A DNA stretch of 64,000 bases from an uncultured bacterium (GTDB taxonomy: Bacteria > Zhuqueibacterota > QNDG01 > DTFT01): the NCBI GenBank assembly GCA_963736115.1, contig CAVTNR010000009.1, positions 96,001-160,000 of the forward strand, given 5' to 3'. Both the position numbers and the translations under genes were made by a program. Of the stretch, positions 2,625 to 30,581 are shown piece by piece (position 1 is the first letter of the stretch; each line of letters starts with the position of its first letter). The notes beneath the pieces are model-generated. The model was not told the origin of the DNA, searched no databases, and saw nothing but the letters and a program-made list of their open reading frames with translations.

Positions 2625-2662
2625 CCGCCCGGAACGAAAAATCGACCGCGGACCGCGGATTT

Positions 2663-2712
2663 GGAGTTCCCCACCGCCCTGCTGCGCTGGAGAATGCGCT
2701 CGCTGACAGATT
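2663..2712 (+). mobile_element. Internally deleted copy of double-hairpin element (family A)
   Basis: Starts ggagttcccc (compare gaagctcccc) and ends gaatgcgctcgctgacagatt, matching 29459-29479 with one mismatch. Confidence 0.65.
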
Positions 2713-2804
2713 CAGGAAGTTTGTTGGCAATGCACTTTTCAGGTGCGTCGCAACTATCAAGAGTAAAATATTCCTCTCATTGAATGTTTTACCTATTATC
2801 TTTC

Positions 2805-2833: not shown

Positions 2834-2855
2834 TTTCCGCTGAAAACCGCATATA

Positions 2856-2968
2856 GAAGCTTCCCCGCGGCCAGCCGCGGTGAAGCTTCTATATGTAGTG
2901 AAGAAAATATATTATATTCGCTCGCTTACCCCGCCGCAAGCGGCGGGGATTGCGCGAGCGATCAGATT
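2856..2968 (+). mobile_element. Double-hairpin non-autonomous element (family A), upstream of carB
   Basis: gaagcttcccc...hairpin 1...cttctatatgtag...tatattcgctcgcttaccccgccgcaagcggcgggga...cagatt; colinear with 29325-29479. Confidence 0.8.
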
Positions 2969-2994
2969 CATTCATTCGTGAGGGGAATTGTTCC

Positions 2995-14153: not shown

Positions 14154-14174
14154 TCTATAACAGGCATCTCTGAT

Positions 14175-14207
14175 TCGTAGCGGCGAAGCGCCGCCTCGCC
14201 CCTACGA
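14175..14207. repeat. GTAG-type REP palindrome
   Basis: tcGTAGcggcgaagcgccgcctcgcccCTACga; similar to 1219-1247. Confidence 0.7.
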
Positions 14208-14533: not shown

Positions 14534-14737
14534 GATGCTCCCGCGATTCCGTTCCTGAAAGATAGGACGAACCCGGCAAACAGTCAAGAAATGGAATGAA
14601 GGATCCCGCATCCGGCCTCCGAGTCGAGGGCTACTTAACTTAACATGTTCAGCCGCCTTGCGCGTGAATTTTCGGATTGCTAAATTGTTTGTCGGATTGT
14701 ATCCACCCGGTCCGGCCGCGGCCGTAAAAATGGCATT

Positions 14738-14870
14738 GAAACTCCCCGCCGCCCGCTTTGCGGGATCAAGCTATTAATATTTATGAATTTTTGAAGACAT
14801 GCAGCGGGCCTTCAAAAAAAATCGAATTGCTTGGTCCGGCGAAGCCGGGTCATGCGCGCGAGATCAGATT
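14738..14870 (+). mobile_element. Degenerate family A element carrying a nested 46-nt insert (14752-14797)
   Basis: att|gaaactccccgccg[cccgctttgcgggatcaagctatta...ttgaaga]catgcagcggg...gcgcgcgagatcagatt. Confidence 0.65.
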
Positions 14871-15111
14871 GAACAAACCCGGCTTCAAGCCAATTCCAGG
14901 GCCCGGGTAAAAACGTTGAGAAAGTGGAGTGCTTGATACTGTCGTCCATTTCCGGGTAAATCACCCGACTCATTCGGCTTGCAGCGCGAACCCGAATAGA
15001 AACTCAGGCAAGCAGATAAAAAACATCTTGTTTCTTTGATGTTTTTACGATATCTTATATTAATCATAGAGTTTTATATTGGTGACCGGGAAAAAATTCA
15101 GCGGGAAGTGC

Positions 15112-28216: not shown

Positions 28217-29152
28217 ATGGCTTCAGAATTTCCCGGCACCCGCCGGACCGAATCCGCGGGCTACACCGACTGTCTGGTTCTCGAAAATGCCGAAGCGCGC
28301 GTGGTTCTCGGGCATCAGTCGGGAGGCCGCGTCCTGGAATACGCCCTCAACGGGCAGAACGTGATTTATCTGGATCCGGAGCAGAACGGAAAGACCTGGA
28401 AAACAGGCGATCCGCCGTACCACCCGAGGGGCGGCCGGTTCGACATCGGGCCGGAGAAACTCATGCCCCCGCATCCCGCGCTGTGGATCGGGGAATGGTC
28501 GTCCGCTGCCACCGGGCCCCGGACCGGCCGGATGATGAGCGTCGTGGATCCGGACACGGGCATTCAGATCATCCGCGACTTCAAGCTGGACGAAGACTCT
28601 TCCCGGCTGTCCTGCCGCCAGACTATGATGAACAAATCAAAGACCGCCGTGGCCCGTCTCTGCCATTGGGGAAGAACCCTGGTGACGGGCGGCGGCATCG
28701 TCGTCATGCCCCTCGGCGAATACAGCCGGTTCCCGAAAAAGTACGTGCTGTACGGCCCGGACGATTCCATTCTGTTCAATCCGTCCGATCCCAACGTGCG
28801 CGAACGCGACGGATACCTGGAAATCCTCGGACCGCCGAAGCATCCCAAAACCGGCATGGATTCGGCCGAGGGCTGGCTCGCCTGCCTGATGCCCCAGAAC
28901 CTGATGTTCCTGAAAAGCTACGCGACCTACCCGGAGCGCGGCTACAATGAAATCGCGGGGCTCACCGTGTCGGTCTGGATGCCCGCGGACGGAAACATGA
29001 TCGAACTCGAGCCCATCGGACCGATGGAAACGCTGAAACCCGGCCAGTCCGCCGTATTCGAGGAGGAATGGTGGCTGGTTCCGTTCGAGTTCCCGCAGGA
29101 CCGGAACGTCGACCTCGCATCCCTTGAAGAGGCCGTGCAGAACGAACTCTGA
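28217..29152 (+). CDS. Hypothetical protein, probable galactose-mutarotase-like beta-sandwich
   Basis: AGGAG RBS; GGRVLEY, GGRFDIGPE, ELEPIGP...L.PG pattern; follows a sugar epimerase. Confidence 0.6.
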   Translation: MASEFPGTRRTESAGYTDCLVLENAEARVVLGHQSGGRVLEYALNGQNVIYLDPEQNGKTWKTGDPPYHPRGGRFDIGPEKLMPPHPALWIGEWSSAATGPRTGRMMSVVDPDTGIQIIRDFKLDEDSSRLSCRQTMMNKSKTAVARLCHWGRTLVTGGGIVVMPLGEYSRFPKKYVLYGPDDSILFNPSDPNVRERDGYLEILGPPKHPKTGMDSAEGWLACLMPQNLMFLKSYATYPERGYNEIAGLTVSVWMPADGNMIELEPIGPMETLKPGQSAVFEEEWWLVPFEFPQDRNVDLASLEEAVQNEL

Positions 29153-29324
29153 CCGGTTCAGCCCGGCTCCGTTCGGAAGGGGCCGTCCGCAGGCCGCCGG
29201 TTCAGCAACCGGTCCTGGGGACGGCCCCGCACGTCCGGATCTTCTGCGCTTTTCCCCGATTGCGCCACCTCCCGCCTACCCTCTGAGAGTCACCATGACC
29301 GACGGAATCCTCATCCGGCCGATT

Positions 29325-29479
29325 GAAGCTCCCCGCCGCAAGCGGCGGGGATTCTTCTATCTGTAAAGAAAAGACATTTTATATTCGCTCGCTAACCCCG
29401 GGGCCCGCTACGCGGGATCAAGCTATTATATGTCTTTTTGTTGAAGACAAACCCCGGGGAATGCGCTCGCTGTCAGATT
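29325..29479 (+). mobile_element. Full-length family A double-hairpin element (155 bp) with nested 44-nt insert at 29404-29447
   Basis: Bounded by GATT at 29321-29324 and 29476-29479; removal restores the GNAT reading frame. Confidence 0.85.
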
Positions 29480-29688
29480 CGCAGAACGGACGTGCCTTCC
29501 TTCAGGGAACTGCTGGACGCCGTATGCCGCGAAAGACGGCATCTCGCCTTTACGGAGGCGCCGCCGCTGGCTGATGGGTACCGGTATGTGACAGACGGGA
29601 TGCGGAAAAAGGACGTACAGATTGTGGCCCTGGCCGGGGTCGAGATTGCGGGATGGTGCGATGTGACGCGGATGGACTTGCCCGGGTT

Positions 29689-29801
29689 GAAGCTCCCCGC
29701 GGCCCCGCTGTGCGGGACCAAGCTATTATATGCCTTCTGGTTGAAGGTAAGCCGCGGGGAGCTTCTATCTGTAGAGAAGAACATATATTATATTCGCTTG
29801 C
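29689..29801 (+). mobile_element. 3'-truncated family A element with nested 45-nt insert at 29704-29748
   Basis: tt|gaagctccccgcggc[cccgctgtgcgggaccaagctattatatgccttctggttgaaggt]aagccgcggggagcttctatctgtag...tatattcgcttgc. Confidence 0.8.
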
Positions 29802-30029
29802 GCATTCTCCGCCGTGCCCGGGAAAACGGCTTGAGCCGCGTCGAACTGGAGGTGTTCGCGTCCAACGAGATCGCGATCCGGCTTTACCTGGAAGCGGAAT
29901 TTGTCATGGAGGGCAGAAAAATCGGAGCGAGAATACTGGACGGGAGGACCGACGACGTGTGCCTGATGGCGCTGAACCTGCCTGAAAAACCCGGCCCGGA
30001 CTGAGCACCGGATCAGACCCGCATCCGGC

Positions 30030-30581
30030 TCATTCCCATGCAACGTCAAATTCGGTGCAAACGTCCCCTTTCACCATGGACCGGACGATATCGACCCGGA
30101 GAGGCTTGCGTCCGCAGATCTCGACCGCACGTTCGATCCATCCGGCCACGCGGTGCTCCACGAAGGGGTGGATGCCTTCGAACTTCAGGATCTCGATGCG
30201 GCATGCGTTCTTCCCGACCTCGGACACGCGGATCTGGGAATCCTTGTAGTACTGACTGAAGATATGCAGACCGCGCGACAGGCTGAACTGCGGCGATCCG
30301 ATGCGCATGAATATCCTCAGGAATCCCTTCAAGGCGAAGTCCGCGCTGAACCGGCCGATTTCCCAGGCGCCTCTCTCCCGGCCCGCGAAAAACAGGTTCA
30401 CGATGTGCCGGGTCGGCTCCAGGTAGGCGGAGTCGATGGGGTACCAATCGCTGGCCAGGCACCATTCCATGATCTTCTGCGACTCGGGAGGAAGTGAACC
30501 AAGCCATTCATCGTAGCGGTCCGCGAACCGCTCCCGGACGAAGGCCCTGAGTGGCAGAACGGTGGTGCCTTTGACTTCCAT
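30030..30581 (-). CDS. Hypothetical protein resembling DUF2378 / V4R-H-NOX-like ligand-binding domain
   Basis: MEVKG start, WYP, GRFSA, AGWIERA, terminal C.F.V.W pattern; GGAGG RBS. Confidence 0.6.
   Translation of the reverse strand: MEVKGTTVLPLRAFVRERFADRYDEWLGSLPPESQKIMEWCLASDWYPIDSAYLEPTRHIVNLFFAGRERGAWEIGRFSADFALKGFLRIFMRIGSPQFSLSRGLHIFSQYYKDSQIRVSEVGKNACRIEILKFEGIHPFVEHRVAGWIERAVEICGRKPLRVDIVRSMVKGDVCTEFDVAWE

Follow-up and report, generated by a model that had tools for sequence, protein, structure and literature searches.

Why should the hairpins of one repeat be interrupted, next to their loops, by a second and smaller structured sequence? The question is raised by a gene for a GNAT acetyltransferase that is disrupted by two copies of a repeat, here called family A, in the genome of an uncultured bacterium (G000; 3.34 Mb in 31 contigs, 87% complete). 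The window is the whole 64-kb stretch that we analysed, G000:C9:96001-160000, and positions without a contig name refer to it. It contains the following copies of family A and of the smaller sequence, which we call the unit:

2661-2713 (+): short degenerate family A variant, with 5' TTGGAGTT, one nested hairpin and 3' ...GCTGACAGATTC
2854-2969 (+): family A copy without a unit, two plain hairpins
14736-14871 (C9:110736-110871) (+): family A variant of 136 nt with two units, one on each strand (+ and -)
14752-14798 (+): unit in hairpin 1 of this 136-nt variant; P1 loop TTT, ATCAAG ... TTGAAGAC
14808-14848 (-): fourth unit, P1 CCGGC-TTC-GCCGG, head-to-head with the unit at 14752
29295-30004 (+): GNAT acetyltransferase gene, disrupted by two family A copies
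29323-29480 (+): family A element of 158 nt in the GNAT gene; plain hairpin 1, linker, hairpin 2 with a unit
29404-29448 (+): unit in hairpin 2 of this copy; P1 CCCGC-TAC-GCGGG, ATCAAG, tail, TTGAAGAC
29686-29803 (+): truncated family A element in the GNAT gene; hairpin 1 with a unit, plus linker
29704-29748 (+): unit in hairpin 1 of this truncated copy; P1 loop TGT, ACCAAG ... TTGAAGGT

The original prediction had described three inserts, and these were confirmed on the plus strand at 29404-29448, 29704-29748 and 14752-14798. After the first hairpin (P1), each has A-Y-CAAGCTATTA ... TTGAAGR, and the P1 loop varies (TAC, TGT, TTT) around a constant CCCGC/GCGGG stem. They occupy hairpin 2 in copy 29323-29480 and hairpin 1 in copies 29686-29803 and 14736-14871, as had been reported, and the uninterrupted 20-nt family A hairpin at 2929-2948 is indeed identical to that at 29331-29350. 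A covariance model run unfiltered finds exactly four units in the window at E<=1, all of them members of its training set. The unit at 29404-29448 scores 63.5 bits (E 4.9e-11) and has T/A at the two variable positions Y and R discussed below, the one at 29704-29748 scores 55.6 bits and has C/G, and the one at 14752-14798 scores 56.7 bits. The fourth, on the minus strand at 14808-14848 (48 bits, E 6.6e-8), was absent from the earlier description. A further REP-like GC-rich palindromic repeat, family D20, has two copies in the window, at 1206-1248 and 14164-14206, with the hairpin GTAGGGGCGAGGCGCC...CTCGCCCCTAC.

The unit is not a peculiarity of this locus, and around 150 copies are present in the 3.3 Mb of G000. 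A profile built from 29 copies gives 213 matches at E<=10. A regular expression of hairpin, AYCAA, 14-32 nt and TGAAGR gives 217 matches, compared with 25 in a base-shuffled genome, and the exact pattern GGGAYCAA-N16-28-TTGAAGRC gives 105 matches, compared with 0 for a reversed control. For the counts below we used a strict regular-expression set of 151 units, of which about five look like false positives (one, for example, lies in a tRNA-like stretch). Model matches are similarly abundant in the congeners (at least 146 in G000, 114 in G001, 95 in G002 and 82 in G003) and sparser elsewhere in the order (G004 6, G026 21, G028 15, G023 7, G019 5, G005 5, G030 4, G027 2). The distribution is patchy, covering 12 of the 31 genomes of the order, and none of the 120 other genomes of the phylum has a unit, so that the 12 positives among the 151 genomes of the phylum sample all belong to one order. 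The end motifs are conserved in at least three families of this order, while the tail varies. Among public runs, all of them contigs, none contained over 14% of the sampled words, and the parts that they leave uncovered carry no weight as evidence.

The unit follows a plan of 44-46 nt: P1, which is a GC hairpin of 5-6 bp mostly closed by a triloop, then A-Y-CAAG, a variable, AT-rich tail of about 20 nt, and ATTGAAG-R-C. We aligned 59 distinct copies from six genomes, and their consensus comprises the P1 hairpin together with invariant GGA-CAA and TGAAG. P1 is paired in 91.5% of the alignment cells, with one pair taking CG, GC and AU. In the same 59 rows, the Y of A-Y-CAAG covaries with the R of GAAG-R-C (UA 34, CG 24, other 1), next to a C-G that is invariant. 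The covariation score of this pair is 0.214, against 0.109 in shuffles (0/500 reach it) and at most 0.08 in slid controls. Among the 151 units of G000, the two positions read C-G in 100 cases, T-A in 45, and are mismatched in 6. This covariation does not merely reflect two lineages, because double switches dominate among near-identical tails: when such tails differ in Y and/or R, both have switched in 196 pairs, Y alone in 26 and R alone in 16. Both states are even found among units with identical tails and identical P1. The unit carries its own compensatory base pair, and Y and R behave as a pair.

The original prediction had seen compensatory changes in a second stem (GYCTTC/GAAGRC) and proposed a covariance check. 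The changes are real, and the check over 59 copies returned covariation both in P1 and in Y-R. What is general is the pair between Y and R; the second stem itself belongs to one subtype of units only, because the tails share no common helix in the 59-row alignment. In the linear unit, the Y-R helix amounts to two closing base pairs beside purine-rich strands. Were the ends joined, GRC and AYC would flank P1 and extend its stem.

Covariation of P1 and Y-R could also be a sign of RNA folding, in which case the unit would function as a structured RNA or as an RNA motif that binds protein, e.g., a processing or stability signal, that the repeats carry along. The conservation of the end motifs across at least three families of the order, with a tail that varies, would suit such a function, and so would the genomes of family f6, where the unit is a fixed part of a non-coding repeat of 360-450 nt. 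Contigs from one metatranscriptome library hold pieces of family A, for which DNA carry-over is possible. On the other hand, units are found on both strands of one composite, nested in one another and inside a coding gene, their tail has no conserved helix, and their presence varies among sister species. The wobble pairs of P1 show no clear strand preference (T.G 10 vs A.C 4) and are too few to fix the active strand. Known ribozymes and RNAs were set aside given that Rfam 15 has no relevant match at E<=10 in the 1.1 kb of positions 29000-30100, and within the 64 kb only a tRNA reaches the gathering score; a comparison by eye with the cores of the hammerhead, twister and pistol ribozymes gave nothing. 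We thus regard an RNA function as improbable, and the unit is probably a dispersed mobile DNA module.

Where does this module reside? A preference for the hairpins of palindromic repeats, as originally proposed, is supported: an outer stem of at least 6 bp encloses 68 of the 151, compared with 7.7% of 2000 sites drawn at random and 24% when the partners are shuffled. The remaining 83 have no clear outer stem, although many of them sit at the foot of a hairpin, and to these the proposal does not extend. The placement of the enclosed units is precise. In 43 of the 68, the unit begins 0 nt after the 5' arm and ends 3 nt before the 3' arm, and this 3-nt remainder is AAG in 33 of the 43. The insert has precise ends and forms a discrete module, and its hosts are many and unrelated; both points are in line with the original prediction. 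Sorted by host, 24 units are in hairpin 1 of family A, 17 in its hairpin 2, 22 at the feet of family A hairpins, 18 in a second composite family, B, 15 in two RAYT-type REP families (8 in C19-type REPs, 7 in C2-type REPs) and 13 inside or after another unit, with 42 left unclassified. Counted from the side of the REPs, units are held by 4 of 26 of the C2 type, 13 of 106 of the C19 type and 0 of 4 of the C17 type. Family C-like hairpins and solitary GC hairpins are also occupied, a single composite element can have units on both strands, and units lodge in the P1 loop of other units, with nesting up to three deep (C9:80394-80531).

Near-identical whole units (edit distance <=3) form 63 pairs across different host classes, which speaks for recent spread between hosts; another 86 such pairs fall within the same class or include an unclassified unit. 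IS608 recognises a simple target word on its left. No such word precedes the unit, whose left flank is variable. At C2-type REPs, the unit follows TGAAG and itself terminates in TTGAAGG, leaving an ambiguity of up to 6 nt. We also considered a CRISPR-like mini-array, with TTGAAGRC-hairpin-AYC as the repeat and 20-nt "spacers," and rejected it: the apparent tandems are nested units, and their tails fall into few families.

The nature of the main host changes how the nesting should be understood. Family A starts with TTGAAGCT and a hairpin and ends with ...CAGATTC. It has a hairpin at a distance of 6-8 nt from one end and of about 20 nt from the opposite end, and these ends do not form inverted repeats. 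Its copies measure 45, 57, 94, 114-115, 136-140, 156-159, 202-206, 247-251 or 291-295 nt, and these size classes step by about 45 nt, i.e., by one unit. The minimal form of 45 nt, made of TTGAAGCT, a hairpin and an 18-nt tail, is a circular permutation of the unit plan, and the two differ in where they are cut with respect to ATT^GAAGRC^hairpin. Some family A backbones that are nearly identical lack a unit, whereas others are occupied in hairpin 1 only, in hairpin 2 only or in both hairpins, and the same loop can hold different unit subtypes. A start of (A/T)TGAAGNN and a hairpin is common to family A, family B and others. The idea of a hyperparasite was thus right about a discrete module associated with hairpins and wrong about its relation to the host: since modules of this very kind also make up family A, this is a self-nesting modular family and not a parasite on a foreign host. 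We consider, with a probability of roughly 0.55, that the best explanation of the insert is a 44-46 nt non-coding module within a family of protein-less mobile hairpin repeats, of which it would be the smallest member in a superfamily spread across the lineage.

Two features of these composites can be noted in passing. In the 57-nt class of family A and at 2661-2713, a bare P1-like hairpin without a tail is nested in the outer hairpin, and the short family A forms could be deletion remnants of a unit. A family B composite at G000 C9:39542-39776 starts with (A/T)TGAAGGAC and a hairpin; its other end is the long palindrome GGCCAGAAGCC...GGCTTCTGGCC.

The carriers themselves move. The element at 29323-29480 is a clean insertion of 158 nt that the orthologues in G001, G002 and G003 lack, with a junction ambiguity of 3-4 nt. 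The second one, at 29686-29803, takes the place of about 82 nt of the GNAT gene in the region of the acetyl-CoA-binding motif. All three of these congeners have the gene intact, and so does a relative represented by a contig of a public bioreactor metagenome; the contig skips both elements and joins 29685 to 29807 with 85 other letters between. In its disrupted form, it keeps an open frame (ORF 29438-30004, 188 aa). Beyond the two GNAT-gene copies, four more composites of G000 have no counterpart at the congener sites; five composites of G000 are missing at the same site in congeners with a junction overlap of 0-7 nt. At one site (locus e, G001:C13 / G003:C219), it is G000 that is empty, and the inner modules of the family B element found there differ between G001 and G003. 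Where family A insertions could be resolved, at three sites, the 5' flank is ATT or ATTG and the junction ambiguities are 0, 3 and 4 nt. Composite elements insert as blocks next to ATT.

Changes are also seen at the level of single units. At locus h (G000 C17:~99730-99830), one C2-type REP has a minus-strand unit in G000, G001 and G003. The same REP has a plus-strand unit in G000 and G001, and G003 is shorter by exactly 44 nt, with an ambiguity of 1 nt; the loop of this REP has no homology to family A stems. The neighbouring REP is filled in G001 and empty in G003. Pairwise identities over 1.1 kb of this locus are 89.9-94.4%, which do not fix the tree and hence the direction, gain or loss, of these differences. 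At locus f, a composite is common to G000 and G002 and absent from G001 and G003. Its middle unit is of another subtype in G000 than in G002, with compensatory differences in P1 and conserved flanks, a replacement that conversion fits equally well. Whole units are gained, lost and replaced between sister species, and their presence differs at orthologous sites (loci h and f). The original prediction had named three outcomes that would speak against it, namely random sites, a single ancestral insertion and no covariation, and none of them arose.

These changes bring forward the question of what moves. The unit itself may transpose, or it may be exchanged among repeats by recombination or conversion. 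It could be that only the composites move, and that units are added, lost and swapped, as in a mosaic like the pneumococcal BOX elements or enterobacterial BIMEs, when hairpins with similar stems undergo homologous recombination, gene conversion, slippage or template switching. Several observations agree with such a modular mosaic. Most loop-borne units are flanked by CCCCGCCG / CGGCGGGG or close variants, as found in family A hairpins 1 and 2 and in family B, and the shared flanking stems (CGCCG/CGGCG) let conversion mimic insertion. In addition, composites insert as blocks whose size classes step by one unit, and the subtype that replaces a unit in an orthologous element exists in the same context elsewhere. 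Yet units also occupy hosts with unrelated stems (two REP families, family C-like and solitary GC hairpins, the P1 of units), 43 of the 68 enclosed units share an entry point that is constant to the nucleotide, and the filled and empty states at locus h differ by precisely 44 nt in a REP loop without homology to the family A stem. The Y-R double changes in otherwise identical units also point to selection on the unit. On balance, we hold it unlikely that composites alone are mobile.

If the mobile-module reading is correct, the unit would move, or be copied, as folded single-stranded DNA. An HUH-type single-strand mechanism is a possibility that we put forward tentatively: a RAYT or an IS200/IS605-like protein, as an HUH/Y1 enzyme that nicks and joins DNA, would act on the unit in trans. 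We propose this type of enzyme because there are no inverted terminal repeats and no clear duplications, because placement depends on hairpins, and because the permutation between the unit and minimal family A matches the recutting of a single-stranded BIME circle outlined in PMC3333891. Of 67 family A copies, on short contigs, 45 have their top strand on the strand that is locally richer in C (p 0.007). This orientation fits such movement; the bias is modest and may have its source in gene orientation. The intermediate might have joined ends, as a circle or a tandem, in which GRC and AYC would flank P1 and lengthen its stem. A joined-ends form would explain both the Y-R pair and the circular permutation of the unit relative to the 45-nt family A. 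The boldest version of this scheme, and a rather doubtful one, is that the unit is a complete substrate of single-strand transposition, with exit at GAAGRC^P1, passage through the joined-ends form and structure-guided entry at the 5' loop edge of any extruded GC hairpin, its own included. Structure-guided entry would give rise to the nesting of repeats and would reshape REPs that belong to unrelated RAYT systems.

A circular duplex offers another route, in which a site-specific recombinase (IS110-type with bridge RNA, tyrosine or serine) would act at a short core, ATT in family A and TGAAG(G) in the unit. A duplex DNA circle of 44-46 bp is too stiff to form easily. In favour of such an enzyme are the ATT/GATT (3-4 nt) at both junctions of family A insertions, the C2-type REPs with TGAAG before the unit and TTGAAGG ending it, and the known targeting of REPs by IS110, IS3 and other IS families (PMC1525189). 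Against it, the insertion at locus f has no junction ambiguity, most unit insertions lack TGAAG on the left, and the only IS110-type gene of G000 has unrelated ends, without TTGAAG-hairpin or unit-like sequences, for which an IS110 link was rejected. All in all, a recombinase of this kind seems a poor candidate. The IS110-family gene in question (G000 C14:88161-88577, a 355 aa ORF) is located in a low-GC stretch, and its ends are unrelated to the repeats.

For the single-strand mechanism that we propose tentatively, G000 has three candidate genes:

G000 C17:75006-75746: RAYT-type Y1 gene flanked by its own REP family
G000 C2:71370-71915: RAYT-type Y1 gene flanked by its own REP family
G000 C19:57393-57902: RAYT-type Y1 gene flanked by its own REP family

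These three Y1 genes score as RAYT (90, 88 and 134 bits, with a cut-off of 80) and fall under the IS200 cut-off. The heads of the flanking REPs are GGGAGT (GAGT), GGTA and GTAG. RAYT-type matches number 11-15 each in G001, G026 and G028. The possibility that the unit is itself the REP of a RAYT was rejected, given that a single one of 33 RAYT loci, inspected over about 1.5 kb on each side in six genomes, has a unit, at 1.4 kb from the gene; family A ends were found at none of these 33 loci. In G000, which is 87% complete, we found no TnpB domain, no IS200-type TnpA and no full-length IS sharing its ends with the unit or family A. A search for IS91/Y2 genes gave zero matches, controls included, and is hence uninformative. 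It had been suggested that longer versions with the same ends might enclose an ORF for a nuclease, transposase or recombinase. None was identified among the family A copies of G000 in which the 3' end follows the 5' end within 295 nt; every other 5' end has its next 3' end at a distance of over 2.7 kb. In G026, a pair of units separated by 4.7 kb turned out to be two copies of the 360-450 nt non-coding repeat.

How does the unit compare with known systems? The BOX elements of Streptococcus pneumoniae are built as A-B(n)-C, in which a module of about 45 nt is repeated a variable number of times. They resemble the present repeats in being modular and in varying the number of modules, but their sequence is unrelated, and boxB is arranged in tandem and not nested in loops. 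Classical MITEs differ as well: neither the unit nor family A has terminal inverted repeats, and the junction ambiguity of the unit is 1 nt. The closest likeness is with the REP, BIME and REPIN-RAYT repeats (PMC3333891, PMC2817692, PMC3116915 and bioRxiv REPIN papers). It includes short GC-rich hairpins with conserved flanks, hundreds of copies, mosaics in both orientations, composites with variable linkers and the presence of RAYT genes in G000. Copy number is high and kept vertically in the lineage (at least 82 to 146 copies in four congeners). The RAYT model given in PMC3333891, in which a single-stranded BIME circle is recut at alternative sites to give variants, would yield permuted forms like the unit and minimal family A. 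The differences are equally clear. The unit lacks a GTAG-type head and has the flanks GRC ... AYC (on the other strand, TTGRT and the hairpin), units flank none of the 33 RAYT loci examined, and a unit has a long variable tail with a distant compensatory pair and sits in the loops of REPs and of itself. As to the extragenic location of REPs, at least two carrier elements are inside a GNAT gene.

PATEs, the ORF-less derivatives of IS200/IS605 (PMC3119063 and PMC7290912), share with these repeats the lack of terminal inverted repeats, the subterminal hairpins (in family A) and the precise presence/absence; the lack of clear target duplications, the insertion beside ATT and the orientation bias may be further points in common. 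They differ in that G000 has yielded no parent IS with matching ends, IS200-type TnpA or TnpB, and in that the unit is one hairpin of 44-46 nt, far below PATE sizes, with a variable left flank. Some IS elements target REPs, among them IS1397, ISKpn1, IS621 and ISPpu9/10 (PMC1525189 and PMC12288879), and the shared trait is a mobile element landing in palindromic repeats. Those are protein-coding DDE/DEDD elements of 1-2 kb, whereas here the guest is a non-coding 45-mer akin to its host. In a limited search of the literature, we came across no report of a repeat unit that resides in the loops of REPs or of its own kind, nor of an ATTGAA-linked relative of IS605. The unit works like REP/BIME/REPIN-RAYT and PATE elements, and we do not file it as a member of either because the GTAG head, the adjacency to RAYT genes and the parent IS are all missing.

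These features have implications for how bacterial hairpin repeats are viewed. REPs, BIMEs and PATEs are usually seen as single-layer systems, each dependent on one enzyme. The 45-nt module described here is found in the loops of various repeat families that are unrelated to each other, as well as in its own, and varies among sister species. If entry is guided by hairpin structure, this would be an unusual choice of target and would also explain the mosaic assembly of repeats. If the unit is a complete single-strand substrate of 44-46 nt, it would be among the smallest mobile DNAs. The system is a simple test bed, with short oligonucleotides, three candidate Y1 enzymes and a compensatory mutant of two letters. 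The repeats also have practical consequences, since they break genes, such as the GNAT gene here, and fragment the assemblies of an uncultured lineage.

A last observation concerns G026 and G028, which belong to another family of the order. In these genomes, an AT-rich hairpin, GTTCTTTTC...GAAAAGAAC, precedes the unit, and a direct copy of the 3' arm of this hairpin (AAAAGAAC) follows it. The arrangement resembles a duplication of 8 nt or else an alternative pairing.
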